Assembly: GCA_029856045.1 (NCBI GenBank)
Contig: JAHQWG010000003.1
Coordinates: forward strand, 1 to 64,000
Origin: Promethearchaeia archaeon
GTDB lineage: Archaea; Asgardarchaeota; Lokiarchaeia; Sigyniarchaeales; SOKP01
Length of the DNA stretch: 64,000 nucleotides
Direction of reading: 5' to 3'
Positions 6,340 through 53,233 of this stretch are shown in pieces (position 1 is the first letter of the stretch; each line of letters opens with the position of its first letter). The notes beneath the pieces are model-generated. The model did no database searches, was not told where the DNA came from, and saw nothing but the letters and a program-made list of their open reading frames with translations. The translations under genes and the position numbers were made by a program.

Positions 6340-7851
6340 TCAGGAAATATATCGAATAATTAAATCTTGAGTTTTTTCTAAAAGTAAAGGTAAGAACTCA
6401 TCAATTTTTTCATTTTTTTCTTCATTATTCACGAAAAAAAGAAAGAACATTGGATTATTTTCAATTATTGTCTTTTTTATTATTATTATATCATCAGGAC
6501 TTATTTTATAAATTGCTTCATTTATATCAGTTTCTCTGAATTTTTCCAAAATTTTATACAAATTGGCTATTTGAGGCGCCAGAATTTCAAAAAAACTCTT
6601 AACAGAGGCTTTTAAAGGTTGTGATTCAGAGAAGATATATTTTATTTCGCCAAGTAATGAAGGACTATAAAAATCAGCAAGTACTAGCCCTTGTTCATTC
6701 ATCAACATAGAAATCTCAATTCCAATGTCTTCTGAAAACCTACTTAAATTAAAGTTAATTAATTCTCTGTTTGGAGACAATAATGATAATCCATGAGAAT
6801 ACGAAGCCAGTATCGTATATACTGAAAAAATACTTGTTAAGAAATATTCAATATTTAATTGCTTTTCTTGATTTATCTCTTCAATTTTTTTGACAATTTG
6901 ATAAACTAAATTTTTTATTTCAGTTGTTTCTTTTATATCTGGATCAACTTTGGAAATTATGATTAACACAGGAATTTCTTGTACATATGTTTTGACATTT
7001 TCGAGAATTTGGTTAAAATAATGAAGACTTTCACCAATTCTTTTGGGATCTCTGACATCTATGAAGTAATAAATTAAATCCGCATCATACAAATAGATTG
7101 GAGCCTTTTTAAGAAATTTATCTCTTGATTTTTCTTGGCCAGATAAGTCCCACGTGAAAACATGGCTGCCGAATGTTTCAAGATGTTTAATTTCTGCTCC
7201 TAATGTAGGTTTTAAACCTAATAATTTGGAATATTTTCGATCAATAGTTAACAAAAAGGATGTTTTTCCAGAATTATCTAGTCCAGCAAGAACGATTTTT
7301 AACTTTCTTGAAGATGTTAGAGGTAAAGTGGGGTTTTCCTCAATTTCAAGCAAATTATTGGTTAATTTTGAAAATGTTGGTTCTAATATATTGTTTTCTA
7401 CATAACCATTATTAATTTTTTCGTCAATTTCGGTTTCAATTTCCAAAATAAATGGTTTTAACCTCTCAATATTATTATAAATAAAACTCCTTTTATTTTC
7501 ATCAATTAATATTGATAAGGTTGAGGCAATTGGTCTCTCTGAAAAGGTAGTTTTAATAAAATGAAAAAACACTAAACTGGAAACTCCAAAATCAGGAAAG
7601 GGTATAATTCCGAAATAATTATAATCGGAAATTTCATTATCAGTAAATAATAAAGAAAGACTTTTAATCGAAATTTGATAAATATCTCTTAAACTCTGCC
7701 TAAACGCCCCATCCACATTTTGGTTAGTATTACATTCATCTAAATTGGACAAGATTGATTCAGGGAAAATATATTTAGGTTCAGGACCACGGTCACCATA
7801 AATAGAAAATATAACTCCTTTTATACAACTTTCTTTGGGTATCTCTCTCAT
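6340..7851 (-). CDS. Rag/Arf-like small GTPase with N-terminal uDENN/longin-like domain and C-terminal roadblock-like domain
   Basis: G1 GLDNSGKTS, G2 PT, G3 WDLSGQ, G4 SKVD, G5 TSIF; paralogous over full length to 14902..16332. Confidence 0.85.
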   Translation of the reverse strand: MREIPKESCIKGVIFSIYGDRGPEPKYIFPESILSNLDECNTNQNVDGAFRQSLRDIYQISIKSLSLLFTDNEISDYNYFGIIPFPDFGVSSLVFFHFIKTTFSERPIASTLSILIDENKRSFIYNNIERLKPFILEIETEIDEKINNGYVENNILEPTFSKLTNNLLEIEENPTLPLTSSRKLKIVLAGLDNSGKTSFLLTIDRKYSKLLGLKPTLGAEIKHLETFGSHVFTWDLSGQEKSRDKFLKKAPIYLYDADLIYYFIDVRDPKRIGESLHYFNQILENVKTYVQEIPVLIIISKVDPDIKETTEIKNLVYQIVKKIEEINQEKQLNIEYFLTSIFSVYTILASYSHGLSLLSPNRELINFNLSRFSEDIGIEISMLMNEQGLVLADFYSPSLLGEIKYIFSESQPLKASVKSFFEILAPQIANLYKILEKFRETDINEAIYKISPDDIIIIKKTIIENNPMFFLFFVNNEEKNEKIDEFLPLLLEKTQDLIIRYIS

Positions 7852-11260: not shown

Positions 11261-12205
11261 ATGCAATATCTCAAAAGTGAAGAATTAGCAAAAAAGATTT
11301 TGTTTACAGGTTTAGACTTCGCAGGAAAGAGCTCAATTATTCTTGCTCTACAGAAAGAATTTTCAAAGATAGCTATACTCAAACCTACTCGAGGCGCAGA
11401 CAGGAGCGTATTCTCTTTTTTAGGATATGAATTTAGTACTTGGGACCTCGGCGGTCAGCAGGCTTACAGAATTAATTATTTACGAAATCCGACTAAATAT
11501 TTTGATAAGACTGAGATTGCAATTTATGTAATTGATATTCAAGATCCAGCACGCTTTGATGATGCAATTGGATATTTAGCGGATGTTATTAAGCAATTTA
11601 AAGAACTTGAAATTGAACCTCCACTCTATGTCTTTTTCCATAAAGTTGATCCAGCATTAATTAAAGAATCAAAGACAGATTTAAACAATTTAATATTAGA
11701 TCTTACTGAAAAAATTAATAATGCCATAGAATATGAAAAAATTAATTTTTATGAGACATCTATTTATGATTTATTTTCCATCATGGCAGCTATTTCGGAA
11801 ATTTTACTTAATCTTTATCCGAAATCTAACCTTATTGATAAGACTCTTTCCGAATTCGGGAAAAAAATTGAAGCTGAAGGACTTATGATCATAGATGATA
11901 ATTCATTACTTGTAGGTAGATATTACTCGAATGATGAAATTAAGCAGATTTTAAGTGCAAGTTCTCCATATTTCTTAACATTACATGATAGGTTTAATGA
12001 GGCAGATATGGAAGGTTCTCCAAAAAAAGAGGATGAGGGAATGGTTGTACAAAGATTTGGAAAATATTTTCAATTTAAAGAAATTAAGTTCCGTTCTGAT
12101 CCTGGGGGACGATATTATTTATTGATTGCGAAAGATACTTATGAATTTGATATAAATTTAATAAACGAATTCGTAGAAATTTTCCAAGATATTTTTACAA
12201 TTTAA
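11261..12205 (+). CDS. Rag-like small GTPase (G domain plus C-terminal roadblock-like domain)
   Basis: GLDFAGKSS, PTRG, WDLGGQ, HKVD, ETSIYD; HKxD and TSIxD are Rag/Gtr-type G4/G5. Confidence 0.88.
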   Translation: MQYLKSEELAKKILFTGLDFAGKSSIILALQKEFSKIAILKPTRGADRSVFSFLGYEFSTWDLGGQQAYRINYLRNPTKYFDKTEIAIYVIDIQDPARFDDAIGYLADVIKQFKELEIEPPLYVFFHKVDPALIKESKTDLNNLILDLTEKINNAIEYEKINFYETSIYDLFSIMAAISEILLNLYPKSNLIDKTLSEFGKKIEAEGLMIIDDNSLLVGRYYSNDEIKQILSASSPYFLTLHDRFNEADMEGSPKKEDEGMVVQRFGKYFQFKEIKFRSDPGGRYYLLIAKDTYEFDINLINEFVEIFQDIFTI

Positions 12206-12358: not shown

Positions 12359-13300
12359 TTGATAATTTGTCCGAATTGTGGTTTTACCAACGATAATCAA
12401 TCCCAATACTGCCGAAAATGTGGTACCGCAATTTCGAATGTTTTTTCCCCTCCAAAAGTAAAAATTCCAATCTTTAATTCTGAAAATGAAGAAATTATTG
12501 GGGATAAACGAGAGGTTAGAAATGATTTACAACCCATTCAGAGAGATACTAAAGTACCCCCAAAACAAAAAGAGCAAGAAAATACATGGACTCCAGATGT
12601 TTCAATTAATAATAAATATGATTTTAATCTCAGAAAAATACCAAAGGTTTCAGAAATTGATGAACCTACTACAAGAAAAGGGAGACCTGCTTCAATATTA
12701 CAAGAAATACCCCCACAACCCTTTTCACTTCAAAGTATTCCATTAACTAATAGTAAAAAGCAATCTTCCCAAGTTCAAAATATTCAGCCTCCAAAAAGAG
12801 AAGAAATATCTTCATCAATGACGAATGCAATGCAAACCCTTACAAAAAATCTTACAACTAAAAAGAAACCGATGAGAACTTCACAAGAATCTCTTGAAAC
12901 TCAACCGGATACAAAATATGAAGAGATCATCTCTAATAATTTGGATGAAATATTAAGAAACATATCAAGATTAGACAAGAATATAGAAGCTTCGGCAATT
13001 ATTAACCCTGATGGAGTGATATTATCTTCCGCACTTTCAGGAAGAGTAAATGACTCATTATTTGTCTCAATTGGAAAAACTTTATCGGTCATTGGTAATG
13101 ATATAGTTAATGCATTAAATACAGGAGCCTTAAAATCCGTTACAATTAATGGAACTCATGGAAAATTTAGTTTAGCGCCAATAGTCAGTGATGTTCTTCT
13201 TCTAATTTTAACTGGTCCGAGAGGAAAAGCAGGAATCATACATTTAGCTGTTAGCTTATTTAAAAAGCAATTTAAATCATATACGGAAAAGAGAAAATAA
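12359..13300 (+). CDS. Zinc-ribbon, low-complexity linker and roadblock/LC7 domain protein
   Basis: CPNCG..YCRKCG; Pro/Ser/Gln-rich middle; C-terminal IEASAIINPDGVILSS...VTINGTHG. Confidence 0.8.
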   Translation: MIICPNCGFTNDNQSQYCRKCGTAISNVFSPPKVKIPIFNSENEEIIGDKREVRNDLQPIQRDTKVPPKQKEQENTWTPDVSINNKYDFNLRKIPKVSEIDEPTTRKGRPASILQEIPPQPFSLQSIPLTNSKKQSSQVQNIQPPKREEISSSMTNAMQTLTKNLTTKKKPMRTSQESLETQPDTKYEEIISNNLDEILRNISRLDKNIEASAIINPDGVILSSALSGRVNDSLFVSIGKTLSVIGNDIVNALNTGALKSVTINGTHGKFSLAPIVSDVLLLILTGPRGKAGIIHLAVSLFKKQFKSYTEKRK

Positions 13301-14901: not shown

Positions 14902-16332
14902 TTGGCTAATAGTCAGAATTCAAATAACGTAAAGAATATAGAAGAGTCTTCTATTATTAAAGCTATTGTTGTATCCATTTTTGATGCGGAAGGGCCAACA
15001 CCTAAATATTATTATCCAGAAAATTTAAATGAAGAATCACGGCTTTTAATAGCAATGAAAACCATAAGTTTGCTTATGGGGGAGGCAACATATCAAGATG
15101 GCAATGCAATAGAAGGCGTTAATTATTTTGGCATTTTACCTTTCCCAGATATAAAATTAAATGGATTGACCTATTTTTTTCTTATATATGACCCTGAAGC
15201 AAGAGGTCAAGCAAAAGCATCTACAATTACTATTTTAGTTGACGAGGAAAACAAATCATTTTTCTATGATAATATTAAATATTTACGAGTTATTATTGAC
15301 AAAGCTGCTTCTCAGATCCAAACTGCTCAGGACTCAAATGAAATGAAAAACATTTTAAATTCTCTACGTATGCAATTATTAAATTTTATCAAAGATTTAA
15401 AACACCCATTTTCTCAAACCAGACAAATAAAAATTTTATTTGCGGGATTGGATAGGTCCGGTAAAAGTTCATTTGTTCTTGGAATACAGAAAAAATATTC
15501 TGAAATAATAAAAGTCTTACCAACTAAAGGTGTATCAAGAGAGATAAGTGAGTTATTTGGTGCTCAACTCATACGCTGGGAACTTGGTGGTCAGAAAAGC
15601 TACCGAGATCAGTATCTTAAGGAAAGCGAAGTTTATTTATATAACGTTGATTTATTATTTTTCTTGATAGATGTTCAAGATTTAAAAAGAAGGGAAGAAG
15701 GATTAAAATATTTTAAAAAATTAATTGAATCTCTTGAAAACATTGATGATTTCCCTCCTATTGTATTATGTTTCCATAAGACAGACCCAGACATAAAAAA
15801 TGAAGAAAAAATTCGTGAAAACATTGAATTCTTAATTATGAGAATTCAAGAATTTACCCAAAATTATTATATTAAAATATTTGAAACATCAATATTTGAC
15901 CACTGGTCATTAGTCTCTGCCTTTTCCTACGGTATTAGTAGATTATCTCCAAATAGAGAGATTTTTAAAAAGCAATTGGAGTGGTTTGCTAATAAAACAG
16001 ATTCTGAAGCTATTTTACTCTTAAATGAAAAAGCAATAATTTTATCAAATTTTTCAAGAGATGATGTCTCAGGAAAAGTTTTCGAGATTTCCGCCCCTCA
16101 TTTTCAAACATTATATAAGACATTTAAAGAATTTAAGATTTTGAAAAAAGATTTCCTTGTATCTTCTGGAATTTCTCAAACTAAAAAGATATTATTTAAG
16201 AAACTTAGTATTGGGAAATTTAATTTATATCTTCTCCTATTCATTAGTAGTGAAGATTATATTGAGAAAATTGATGAAAATTTGGAAGAGTTTATTTCAA
16301 GAATTGAAGTATTGATACAAACATATATTTAG
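14902..16332 (+). CDS. Rag/Arf-like small GTPase with N-terminal uDENN/longin-like (FLCN/SMCR8-like) domain and C-terminal roadblock-like domain
   Basis: SIFDAEGPTP and YDPEARG in the N-domain; GLDRSGKSS, PTKG, WELGGQ, HKTD, ETSIFD. Confidence 0.85.
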   Translation: MANSQNSNNVKNIEESSIIKAIVVSIFDAEGPTPKYYYPENLNEESRLLIAMKTISLLMGEATYQDGNAIEGVNYFGILPFPDIKLNGLTYFFLIYDPEARGQAKASTITILVDEENKSFFYDNIKYLRVIIDKAASQIQTAQDSNEMKNILNSLRMQLLNFIKDLKHPFSQTRQIKILFAGLDRSGKSSFVLGIQKKYSEIIKVLPTKGVSREISELFGAQLIRWELGGQKSYRDQYLKESEVYLYNVDLLFFLIDVQDLKRREEGLKYFKKLIESLENIDDFPPIVLCFHKTDPDIKNEEKIRENIEFLIMRIQEFTQNYYIKIFETSIFDHWSLVSAFSYGISRLSPNREIFKKQLEWFANKTDSEAILLLNEKAIILSNFSRDDVSGKVFEISAPHFQTLYKTFKEFKILKKDFLVSSGISQTKKILFKKLSIGKFNLYLLLFISSEDYIEKIDENLEEFISRIEVLIQTYI

Positions 16333-17802: not shown

Positions 17803-18447
17803 TTGATTTATAAAGTATTTTTGATAGATGGGAGTGATGGTATTCTTATTTTAGAAAAATCTTTTAAGGAATTTAATAAAAGTAAAAACTTAAAAACAGA
17901 ATTATTAACTGATTTCTTTAAAGAAGTAAATAAGATGATTGATGATTTACAAGATGCCATGACCAAGGGAAGTAGATTAGGTGATACAAATAGGATTATT
18001 TCTGGAGATTACTCCACGATAATAATGTATTACCATTCATTGTCTCATGTGCTATTTTGCTCAATATCTGATGATGATGATGATAAAGAAAAACTAATAG
18101 AAATACTACAAAATTTTGGGTTAAAATTTTATGAAAAATATGAAAAGGATTTAAAGAAATTTAGAAAAACCTCAGAAAAAAAATATTTTTTAAGTTTTAT
18201 TGATGAAATAGATATATTATCAGTTAGAGGTCGTGGGGCAGAAATATTACCAAAACTGATTATAGCAAAAAATGTTCTTGAACGTATCAAAAATATGGGT
18301 ATAATAAATGATAAGGAACTAAAAATTGCTCTAGAATGTAATGGAAAAAAGTCCCTTCTTAAAATTTCAAGGAATTTAAGTATAGTCGAGAGCAAAATAA
18401 GAGAGAGTCTTAAAAAATTGGAAAATTTAGAAATTATTAAATTATAA
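17803..18447 (+). CDS. Longin-like domain plus C-terminal winged HTH protein
   Basis: N-terminal VFLIDGSDGILILEKSF...LKFYEKY longin-like pattern; C-terminal CNGKKSLLKISRNL...LKKLENLEII wHTH pattern. Confidence 0.55.
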   Translation: MIYKVFLIDGSDGILILEKSFKEFNKSKNLKTELLTDFFKEVNKMIDDLQDAMTKGSRLGDTNRIISGDYSTIIMYYHSLSHVLFCSISDDDDDKEKLIEILQNFGLKFYEKYEKDLKKFRKTSEKKYFLSFIDEIDILSVRGRGAEILPKLIIAKNVLERIKNMGIINDKELKIALECNGKKSLLKISRNLSIVESKIRESLKKLENLEIIKL

Positions 18448-51313: not shown

Positions 51314-53233
51314 ATGAATAGATTTAAAATTAAAGGAGGAATTACGGGGAAGATTTTACGTGTTGATTTAAGTGCAGAGAAAGTAAGAGTTGAGGAAAAT
51401 AAATATGCTGAAAGATGGATTGCAGGAAGGGCTTTGAGTAGCTGGATTCTCTTGAATGAAATGGACCCCACAACTAAATGGTCTGATCCTGAAAATTATC
51501 TTATTTTTGGTGCTGGTGCATTAATTGGTACGATCGCTCCTGCTAGCTGCCGGACAAACATCGATACGATAAATGTATTTAATAATGGAAAAGGATCCTC
51601 TAATGTTGGTGGGCATTTTAGCCCAGAGATGAAATTTGCAGGGTTTGATCAAATAATCATAAAAGGTAAGGCTGAAAAGCCTGTCTATTTATTTATCTCT
51701 GATGGTAAAGCTGAAATTCGTGATGCATCACATCTTTGGGGCAAAAGTACTTATGAAACTGAAGATATACTTAAGAAAGAATTAAGAGATAATAAAATTG
51801 AGATAGCTTCTATTGGTCCTGCTGGAGAAAATTTAGTTCATGGATCCGCAATAATTATAGATTGTGGTAGGGCTGCTGGTGGGTCTGGGGTTGGATGTGT
51901 TATGGGAGATAAAAAATTAAAAGCTATTGTAGTTCGAGGACACAACTCAGTGAAAGTTGCTCATCCAGAAGAATTTTTACAAAGAGCTTATGAAGCATAT
52001 CAGAAAATAATAAAACGTCCTACAGCTAAAGTATTCCGTAAAAAAACTCTTGCAGGAATGGTATATAATGACTCTGAACAATTTGATGATCTATGGGAAA
52101 TGATGCATTCTACTAAAAATTCTCAAGATGTACATTGGTCTCGTGAACAACGTTCAAGAATAATGGGTAAGGAAGGTGTTGGAAAATTCTTTAAAAAAGT
52201 TCAAGCGTGTTATGCATGTCCTGTAGGTTGTCAGCCATATTCTGAAATTAATGAAGGAAAATTTAAGGGTTCCAAGGGATTAGGTTATTGGATTAATTCA
52301 GTTATGTGGTCTGGAAAGATGGATGTTACTGATCCAGAAGCTTCATTAAGATATCATCTTCGTGCTAATCAATTGGGCTTGGATGGAGATGACTCATCCG
52401 TCGTTATGTCTTGGGCATTCGAGGCATATGAAAAAGGATTGTTAACAAAAGAAGATGTTGATGGCTTAATTTTAACATGGGGTAATTCTGATGCAATGCT
52501 TGAATTACAGGAAAAAATAGCTTCACGTGATGGTTTTGGTGATTTTCTTGCAGATGGTGTAGTTGCTGCAGCAAAAAAACTTGGAAAAGGTTCAGAAAAA
52601 TTTGCTATTAATCAAAAAGGACAAGATTCACTTGATCCATATCGTGTTTGTAAGGGATGGTCTCTCGCGTGTGCCACATCTCCAATTGCAGGGCGTCATA
52701 TGAGGGGAAGCATCAATATACCGATTGCATTTGGGCCAAAAGGTGTAAAATTTAATCCATATTCTTATGAAGACCAACCACCAATAGTATTTTGGGAATT
52801 ACGAGCTAAAGAAATTGAAGACATTACTGGAATCTGTGTTTATGTAGGAACTTGGTCTGGTGTATATGCACTTGAACCTTCAGATTATGTCGAATTAACT
52901 AATTTAGCATTAGGAATTAACCTAACGGAAGAGGATTTCATGCTCTTAGGGCAAAAAGGTTATAACTTAGAGAAAGCATTTAATACCATTCATGTTGGAT
53001 TTAAACGCGAAGATGACCTTCCACATCGAAGATTCTTTGAAGATCCTATATTATCAGGGCCACATAAAGGAGAAACCTTAAATAAAGAAAAATATAATTC
53101 TATGTTAGATGCATTTTATGAACTTCATGGATGGGATAAAGAAACGAGTTGGCAAACCCGTAAAACTTTAGAATCTTTGGGACTATCCGATGTAGCCGAA
53201 AAATTAGCAGAAGTTGGTCGGTTGATTGAATAA
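51314..53233 (+). CDS. Tungsten aldehyde:ferredoxin oxidoreductase-family protein (atypical active-site region)
   Basis: GKILRVDLS, IGPAGEN, MGDKKLKA, CYACPVGC, LGLD, DITGIC, FYELHGWD. Confidence 0.9.
   Translation: MNRFKIKGGITGKILRVDLSAEKVRVEENKYAERWIAGRALSSWILLNEMDPTTKWSDPENYLIFGAGALIGTIAPASCRTNIDTINVFNNGKGSSNVGGHFSPEMKFAGFDQIIIKGKAEKPVYLFISDGKAEIRDASHLWGKSTYETEDILKKELRDNKIEIASIGPAGENLVHGSAIIIDCGRAAGGSGVGCVMGDKKLKAIVVRGHNSVKVAHPEEFLQRAYEAYQKIIKRPTAKVFRKKTLAGMVYNDSEQFDDLWEMMHSTKNSQDVHWSREQRSRIMGKEGVGKFFKKVQACYACPVGCQPYSEINEGKFKGSKGLGYWINSVMWSGKMDVTDPEASLRYHLRANQLGLDGDDSSVVMSWAFEAYEKGLLTKEDVDGLILTWGNSDAMLELQEKIASRDGFGDFLADGVVAAAKKLGKGSEKFAINQKGQDSLDPYRVCKGWSLACATSPIAGRHMRGSINIPIAFGPKGVKFNPYSYEDQPPIVFWELRAKEIEDITGICVYVGTWSGVYALEPSDYVELTNLALGINLTEEDFMLLGQKGYNLEKAFNTIHVGFKREDDLPHRRFFEDPILSGPHKGETLNKEKYNSMLDAFYELHGWDKETSWQTRKTLESLGLSDVAEKLAEVGRLIE

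Follow-up and report, generated by a model that had tools for sequence, protein, structure and literature searches.

In eukaryotic nutrient signalling, Rag GTPases are the targets of the longin GTPase-activating proteins (GAPs) GATOR1 and FLCN-FNIP, and Arf is the target of the related C9orf72-SMCR8 complex. Asgard archaea possess abundant NPRL2-like longins together with FLCN-like proteins (Liu et al., 10.1101/2020.10.19.343400), and a recent study, in which the GP motif of such longins was defined, found this motif along with an arginine finger in Asgard longins and raised the question of whether these work with ArfR or with Rag/Gtr GTPases (Traffic 2025, PMC12290439). A gene that bears on this question lies in the stretch of DNA analyzed here, namely the first 64,000 nucleotides of contig JAHQWG010000003.1 (forward strand) from a Promethearchaeia archaeon (assembly GCA_029856045.1), hereafter called the window. 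The gene, LGR1, encodes a longin-GTPase-roadblock protein in which a longin and a Rag-type G domain share one polypeptide. Based on sequence alignments and structural models, we propose, with a probability of about 0.6, that the longin of LGR1 is an arginine-dependent GAP module whose substrates are the G domains of its own family.

Domain architecture of LGR1

LGR1 is a real and strongly conserved gene of Lokiarchaeial type. Its frame opens with a TTG codon, at the position of which the 93% identical ortholog P0002 has ATG, and the purine-rich AGGAAAGGG lies about 10 nt 5' of this start. A search of 5.8 billion proteins returned 569 homologs at an expectation value (E) of 1e-3 or below; the 120 listed homologs measure 467-489 aa, are 57-93% identical to LGR1 over the full length, and derive from Asgard metagenome-assembled genomes labelled Loki-, Thor-, Hod-, Hermod- or Promethearchaeota. 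Given the number of homologs and the full-length conservation of those listed, LGR1 is no chance open reading frame. The named homologs are annotated just as 'ADP-ribosylation factor-like protein', '50S ribosome-binding GTPase' or hypothetical.

The full-length AlphaFold2 model of LGR1, calculated from an alignment of 42 sequences (predicted local distance difference test [pLDDT] 74; predicted template-modelling score [pTM] 0.51), comprises three domains. Residues 19-165 adopt the longin topology b-b-a-b-b-b-a-a, with strands at 19-28, 31-38, 75-81, 86-96 and 104-114 and helices at 44-59, 119-140 and 145-165, while residues 352-475 follow the roadblock topology a-b-b-a-b-b-b-a. In the G domain between them, the P-loop (GLDRSGKS, 182-189), the switch-I threonine (T208) and the glutamine of the DxxGQ type (Q231) are intact, and the remaining motifs read WELGGQ in G3 (226-231), HKTD in G4 (292-295) and TSIFD in G5 (329-333). 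This layout had been put forward in a first-pass annotation of the DNA, in which a longin, a Rag-type G domain and a roadblock-like tail were read from the sequence, together with an arginine codon for residue 101 at nucleotides 15202-15204. All the motifs that it had named (SIFDAEGPTPKYYYP, TYFFLIYDPEARGQAKASTITILVD, WELGGQ, HKTD and TSIFD) were found, the codon is AGA and encodes arginine, Pfam and the AlphaFold2 secondary structure agree with the three-domain polypeptide, and the tail is borne out by its topology and by its alignments with Rag/Gtr proteins.

On full-length LGR1, the Pfam family Gtr1_RagA matched aa 177-388 with 86.1 bits (cut-off 22), followed by Arf with 60 bits. A Foldseek search with the full-length model ranked LokiRagO (8yl2) at the top (E 1e-22; E 4e-40 by sequence), followed by RagA, RagC, Gtr1 and Gtr2 over approximately 300 residues (TMt 0.65-0.74), whereas Arf and Arl proteins ranked behind the Rag/Gtr proteins and matched only the G domain. 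The G domain and roadblock of LGR1 are therefore of the Rag/Gtr type. This combination of a G domain with a C-terminal roadblock is shared by RagA/B-RagC/D, Gtr1-Gtr2, LokiRagO and LokiRagM (8zla/9m28). None of these, however, possesses an N-terminal longin, which in LGR1 places 165 residues ahead of the G domain, unlike the canonical Rags that consist of the G and C-terminal domains only, and LGR1 further differs from them by the glutamate in G3. Within the RagGtr group, LGR1 thus has a variant architecture. HKxD in G4 is a Rag feature, and LGR1 reads HKTD at this position. However, HKxD, WELGGQ (nucleotides 15577-15594, with Glu in place of the Asp that binds the Mg water) and an interswitch shortened by three residues are confined to the genus of the window and its closest relatives (P0002-P0007), while the other LGR1 orthologs carry WDLGGQ and NKxD. 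Hence, the Rag-type assignment of the first reading is upheld by Pfam and Foldseek, but its use of HKTD as a Rag-type G4 applies to the close clade only, and the WELGGQ that it had pointed out is real within the same limit.

Class of the longin domain and its candidate arginine finger

To which longin class does the N-terminal domain belong? LGR1 residues 1-172 were searched against 1.84 billion cluster representatives, which yielded 124 clusters; 87 N-domain sequences from this search form alignment A3, a differently built, trimmed core profile is termed A4, and a further alignment, A1, comprises orthologs only. The model of the isolated N-domain from A3 (pLDDT 92.3, pTM 0.88) displayed the longin topology and was compared with 48,161 chains using VIA-align. 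The best match was the longin of the Loki Roadblock-Longin protein 8yqg (Z 18.5), followed by C9orf72 (12.6), Lst4 (12.5), FLCN (12.3), NPRL2 (11.2), FNIP2 (11.1) and SMCR8 (11.0), then by DENND1A (10.7) and a chain of the SEA complex (10.1), while the generic longins (TRAPP, VAMP7, Sec22, AP sigma, Mon1-Ccz1) reached Z scores of at most 9.7. The Foldseek ranking agreed with that of VIA-align, and both place the longins of GAP complexes above the generic ones, as expected from the uDENN/longin assignment made at first sight.

Profile comparisons pointed in the same direction, with a borderline but consistent match to the Folliculin family. The isolated N-domain matched the Pfam family Folliculin (PF11704) with 23.9 bits (E 4e-5; cut-off 23.3), and the same family, which SMCR8 itself contains, was matched by 26 of the 87 related longins (best E 1.2e-6), with a C9orf72-like match in 4 of the 87; no other longin family recurs among the Pfam matches of these 87 domains. 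When A4 was compared with all PDB sequences, 8yqg and SMCR8 were the only matches, the GP motif falling on G68-P69 of SMCR8. A phmmer search of the PDB with the LGR1 segment 72-150 found neither FLCN nor SMCR8, and a feature search of the ESM Atlas, whose scores of up to 0.83 serve as leads only, gave one cluster with 19% NPR2 members. Taken together, the models and profiles support placing the domain in the FLCN/SMCR8/NPRL2 (uDENN) class of longins and not among the generic ones.

Two elements, the GP motif and the arginine finger, have been reported for longins of this class, and both have counterparts in LGR1. In the N-domain model, G31-P32 occupy the b1-b2 turn and R101 lies in the b4-b5 loop. 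The strand order of the longin sheet is 2-1-5-4-3, so that this turn and this loop are neighbors on one edge. This placement agrees with the reported proximity of the GP motif to the finger in space; the motif is also reported to be specific to GAP longins and absent from non-GAP longins, and its combination with the arginine to occur solely in GAP longins (PMC12290439). In SMCR8, the finger has been visualized as R147, which points at BeF3 in the complex with ARF1 (PMC8213707).

For a comparison at the residue level, SMCR8 sequences were retrieved with the fragment of the PDB match, and residues 45-230 of the human protein (P0339) were used as a single-sequence template. An hhalign comparison with A3 (probability 78.5%, E 1.7e-5, 115 columns) aligned IVVSIF-DAEGPTP with ILISEFSEQVGPQP and LTYFFLIYDPEARGQ with YVHHLTLYDLEARGF. 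By position count, this sets YDPEARG of LGR1 on YDLEARG of SMCR8, so that R101 corresponds to R147 and G31-P32 to G68-P69; this comparison covered SMCR8 R147, whose counterparts among the fingers of the class are FLCN R164 and NPRL2 R78. Among 31 orthologs, F27, D28, G31, P32, A100, R101 and G102 are invariant, and across the 87 divergent longins the glycine is kept in 86, the proline in 84 and the arginine in 71. The suggestion that the D-x-x-A-R-G loop holds a finger gained an aligned catalytic counterpart in SMCR8 and a conservation record. The longin core is also the most conserved part of the protein, with 40 of its 100 columns invariant; the G domain has 45 invariant columns out of 171, and the roadblock has 32 out of 130.

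Table 1. Features of LGR1 and of other genes in the window (nucleotide positions)
Feature	Position	Strand	Remarks
LGR1, longin-GTPase-roadblock protein, 476 aa, whole gene	14902-16332	+	opens with TTG; range includes the stop codon
N-terminal longin domain, aa 17-165	14950-15396	+	FLCN/SMCR8/NPRL2 class (supported by models and profiles)
GP motif, G31-P32	14992-14997	+	start of strand b2; aligned to SMCR8 G68-P69
R101 codon (AGA), candidate arginine finger	15202-15204	+	b4-b5 loop; aligned to SMCR8 R147
Linker, aa 166-175	15397-15426	+	longin helix a3 to G-domain strand b1; pLDDT<50 at 167-174
Rag/Gtr-type G domain, aa 176-346	15427-15939	+	motifs, Pfam, Foldseek
Roadblock domain, C-terminal, aa 347-476	15940-16329	+	like the Rag/Gtr C-terminal domain
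LGR2, paralog, 503 aa, same three domains	6340-7851	-	32% identical to LGR1 over the full length
Longin-less Rag/Gtr-like GTPase, 314 aa	11261-12205	+	Gtr1_RagA 95 bits
Zn-ribbon + Roadblock/LC7 protein	12359-13300	+	directly 3' of the Rag-like gene

Proposed mechanism and competing explanations

The window encodes a paralog, LGR2 (Table 1), in which the GP motif is kept and the arginine is absent, since TTFSE-RP replaces DPEARGQ in a loop that is one residue shorter, and in which G4 reads SKVD. At ten loci from six genera, every LGR1 ortholog has ARG, while every LGR2 ortholog retains GP, lacks the arginine and has the loop shortened by one residue. Both genes occur together in 26 of the 32 LGR1-bearing genomes (E<=1e-60), usually on one contig and 7-20 kb apart. 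From these sequences we infer that LGR2 is a candidate non-catalytic partner of LGR1.

In the mechanism that we propose, the longin would serve as a built-in GTPase-activating module by inserting R101 into the nucleotide pocket of a Rag-type G domain. The target pocket would most likely lie in a dimer held together by the roadblock and/or longin domains, which could be either a homodimer of LGR1 or a heterodimer with the arginine-less LGR2. The linker of about 10 residues, which follows a helix of 20 residues, would be compatible with action of R101 in cis or in trans. A complex prediction for the homodimer (two copies of aa 15-476 with two GTP and two Mg) gave no verdict, with a score of 0.30 against a mark of 0.42. 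Catalytic arginines contributed by the GTPase chain itself or by its dimer partner are found in the helical domain of G-alpha and in dimerization-activated GTPases, and in the MglA-MglB pair a roadblock-fold regulator, MglB, acts on a small GTPase without an arginine finger. The domains and geometry of these systems are unrelated to those of LGR1, and the likeness is by analogy only.

Closer counterparts exist among the eukaryotic longin GAPs, and the proposed arrangement would mirror the catalytic/non-catalytic pairs FLCN:FNIP, SMCR8:C9orf72 and NPRL2:NPRL3, as they act on RagA:RagC. The ARF GAP C9orf72-SMCR8 (CSW) resembles LGR1 in the longin fold, in the alignment positions of GP and arginine and in its match to PF11704, which is borderline for LGR1, and, like LGR1 and LGR2, it combines an arginine-bearing longin with one that has GP and lacks the arginine. 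However, SMCR8 carries a DENN domain behind its longin, and its target in trans is an Arf on another chain, whereas in LGR1 the longin chain itself continues into a Rag-type G domain and a roadblock. FLCN-FNIP2 (Lst7-Lst4; GAP for RagC/Gtr2) and the NPRL2-NPRL3 part of GATOR1 (GAP for RagA/Gtr1) represent the longin class of LGR1, and their substrates, Rag/Gtr proteins with roadblocks, represent the family of its fused G domain. In eukaryotes, these GAPs are separate multi-subunit complexes recruited to the lysosomal Rag-Ragulator, whereas LGR1 is a fusion without DENN, DEPDC5, TOR or a lysosomal context.

Several observations weigh against an arginine-dependent GAP module. The closest solved structure to the LGR1 longin, 8yqg (root-mean-square deviation 2.3 Å over 140 residues; profile E 2e-22), keeps GP but lacks the finger arginine (EPEKT in place of EARGx), and its longin is fused to a roadblock rather than to a GTPase; the arginine is likewise missing from 16 of the 87 family members. 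As both 8yqg and these members lack the arginine, the longin fold also serves non-catalytic roles. The register that equates R101 with R147 comes from one alignment with a single sequence as template; with A4 or A1, hhalign covers just the GP region of SMCR8, and the b4-b5 segment of SMCR8 alone gives the same register with a non-significant E of 0.17. Full-length LGR1 scores 22.6 bits on PF11704 (aa 89-147), just below the cut-off of 23.3. FLCN and SMCR8 continue from the longin into DENN, while LGR1 continues into the G domain and roadblock; LGR1 is hence not an ortholog of FLCN, SMCR8 or NPRL2, and the homology is that of the longin domain only. The full-length model, with its pTM of 0.51 and low-confidence linkers, does not fix the relative placement of the domains. 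Furthermore, unrelated housekeeping genes share the conserved gene block around LGR1 and LGR2, which makes their linkage weak evidence for a functional pair.

Some of these points would fit a longin that, like most longin and roadblock domains, is a dimerization or platform module only, with R101 and GP having structural or partner-binding roles and with hydrolysis being intrinsic or stimulated by another protein. The nearest solved relative, 8yqg, is dimeric and lacks the arginine, and LGR2 paralogs, which are among the 16 arginine-less members, preserve the domain and its GP all the same. Dimers of longin or roadblock domains have been described as platforms for GTPases in general (PMC10933270, PMC3747258), and conservation within the longin peaks at helix a1 and the b3/b4 region instead of the arginine loop. 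Against a platform alone stand the invariance of A100, R101 and G102 in the orthologs, the alignment of R101 with the proven finger of SMCR8 and the reported restriction of GP plus arginine to GAP longins (PMC12290439), and we regard it as rather unlikely.

The longin could also be a true GAP whose substrate is another GTPase, such as LGR2, the longin-less Rag-like protein or a Ras/Rab-like protein, with the G domain and roadblock of LGR1 itself serving as a regulated anchor. The pairing of an arginine-bearing LGR1 with an arginine-less LGR2, constant across genera, would suit this arrangement, as would the second Rag-like gene (11261-12205) located 3 kb upstream together with the Zn-ribbon-roadblock gene (12359-13300). 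The adjacency of these two genes on the same strand is kept at 8 of the 9 same-family loci examined, the ninth having an insert of approximately 1 kb, and they probably form a two-gene unit. In eukaryotes, FLCN and NPRL2 each target one specific Rag of the heterodimer (PMC9473554, PMC8213707). Nevertheless, with more than half of the clusters covalently fused to a GTPase, the simplest candidate is the fused G domain or that of a dimer mate, and we consider a foreign substrate improbable.

Finally, an exchange factor or a nucleotide-state lock (GEF- or GDI-like), as in the longins of uDENN, Mon1-Ccz1 and TRAPP, is very improbable: although the GEF domains of DENND1A/B appear among the structural matches and most longin platforms are GEFs (PMC10933270), the GP motif is reported to be missing from DENND proteins (PMC12290439), the structural match to DENND1A is weaker than those to C9orf72, Lst4, FLCN, NPRL2, FNIP2 and SMCR8, and an invariant arginine at the finger position is unexpected in a GEF.

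An extension of the arginine-dependent GAP reading can also be envisaged, in which LGR1 and LGR2 would form a heterodimer through their roadblocks and longins, equivalent to RagA:RagC plus a longin pair. R101 would then fire on one G domain of a self-contained, asymmetric, self-timing two-GTPase switch, from which the eukaryotic Rag/GATOR1/FLCN switch would have arisen by domain fission. We consider this extended scenario speculative and distinctly unlikely.

Distribution, gene neighborhood and significance

How widely the architecture occurs was assessed in 151 genomes of the phylum, using E<=1e-60 as the threshold for orthologs and profile A4 at E<=1e-6 for the longin class. Orthologs of LGR1 were detected in 28 of the 29 sampled members of the family to which the window belongs and in all 3 of a sister family (31 of 32 in the order), and in 0 of the 118 genomes from the other 23 families outside this order. 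The longin class extends further, to 73 of the 151 genomes, which comprise all 32 sampled from the same order besides G000 and members of eight further families; at the A4 threshold it was detected in 0 of 32 genomes of family f7 and 0 of 14 of family f12.

A small-GTPase domain accompanies the longin in 56 of 105 representative clusters (Gtr1_RagA in 36, Ras in 31), and single clusters carry TIR (E 7e-19) or a winged-helix regulator of the TrmB type (E 1e-12). By motif counting, which overlooks fragments and degenerate P-loops, 22 of the 24 longin-GTPase proteins that lack a roadblock keep the arginine, as do 7 of 12 longin-GTPase-roadblock proteins. Some proteins of 360-520 aa with this longin, namely P0132, P0152, P0200 and P0207, part of which reach the length of a longin-GTPase-roadblock protein, lack a canonical GxxxxGK[ST] P-loop and may be pseudo-GTPase members of the family. 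By Rosetta-stone logic, the fusion pattern argues for a functional link, and it is best read as a sign that GAP-type longins and GTPases of the Rag and Ras/Rab types were already cooperating in Asgards. Because the fusion partners are so varied (Ras/Rab-like GTPases, TIR, TrmB and others), the pattern looks like repeated, Asgard-specific domain shuffling and not like the remains of one ancestral single chain.

The first-pass annotation had seen in LGR1 a possible single-chain ancestor of the FLCN-Rag switch. This idea is weakened, since the orthologs at E<=1e-60 were found in one order only and the longin class is fused to many modules, and we downgraded it; LGR1 is not necessarily an ancestor of the eukaryotic system.

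Five genera share the order of the genes that lie between approximately 3.8 and 19.5 kb of the window. Among these are MtrH-like, AIR-synthase-like, SLOG, NERD and transglutaminase genes, and the ATP-cone gene of the block switches strand; an operon or functional kit was therefore rejected, and with unrelated genes interspersed the block looks like synteny at the family level. Its single close gene pair consists of the longin-less Rag-like gene and the Zn-ribbon-roadblock gene. The neighbors of LGR1 encode proteins with an ATP-cone, with a NERD domain and of transglutaminase-like type. A 214-aa protein (17803-18447, + strand) is encoded near or next to LGR1 at 9 of 9 same-family loci; it has no Pfam match, and none to the GP-longin profile at E<=0.01. 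The GC content of the window (positions 1-64000) varies between 25 and 35%; the contig measures 64,918 bp, and the genome comprises 3.34 Mb in 55 contigs with an estimated completeness of 100%.

The genome holds three strong members of the longin class, namely LGR1, LGR2 and a 355-aa longin-Rab-like protein encoded on contig C47 (approximately 51555-52601, + strand). In the latter, a longin that has GP, and proline in place of the finger, is fused to a G domain of the Ras/Rab type (GDPEVGKTS, WDIAGQ, GNKRD), and relatives within the family carry 1-4 genes of this type, of about 350 aa. Two paralogous frames on contigs C27 (411 aa) and C15 (360 aa) match the longin profile more weakly, displaying K/T-IGP, ARGG and a helical tail of about 250 aa; they may belong to the class as stand-alone proteins that act in trans.

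Longin-GTPase-roadblock (L-G-R) architectures have been listed for MK-D1 from AlphaFold2 models, where the longin was not classified and an arginine finger was not mentioned (Tran et al. 2024, PMC10933270). The text of the Traffic study, which deals with 15 Asgard longins, does not mention fusions (PMC12290439). It was the only relevant paper that our literature search found to combine Asgards, arginine fingers and longins; the search found no paper that ties the L-G-R architecture to arginine-finger longins, and none that describes 8YL2, 8ZLA, 8YQG, 9M28 or the LokiRag names. Hence, both the architecture and the Asgard longins with GP and arginine finger are already published, and the first-pass annotation had overrated their novelty. 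What is new is the connection of these two published sets in LGR1, along with the constant pair of arginine-bearing and arginine-less paralogs.

For the question of which GTPases partner with the Asgard longins, LGR1 and the more than half of longin clusters that are fused to small GTPases provide a genomic answer, namely GTPases of the Rag and Ras/Rab types. The value of LGR1 lies in a testable hypothesis, with a GAP role that is predicted, and in its use as a compact test object, as it unites in one chain a regulator and a switch, for which eukaryotes use separate proteins. LGR1 could thereby reveal whether the longin-GAP mechanism predates eukaryotes, and its constant pairing with an arginine-less paralog suggests a possibly older origin of the asymmetry seen in the longin GAP dimers and Rag heterodimers of eukaryotes.

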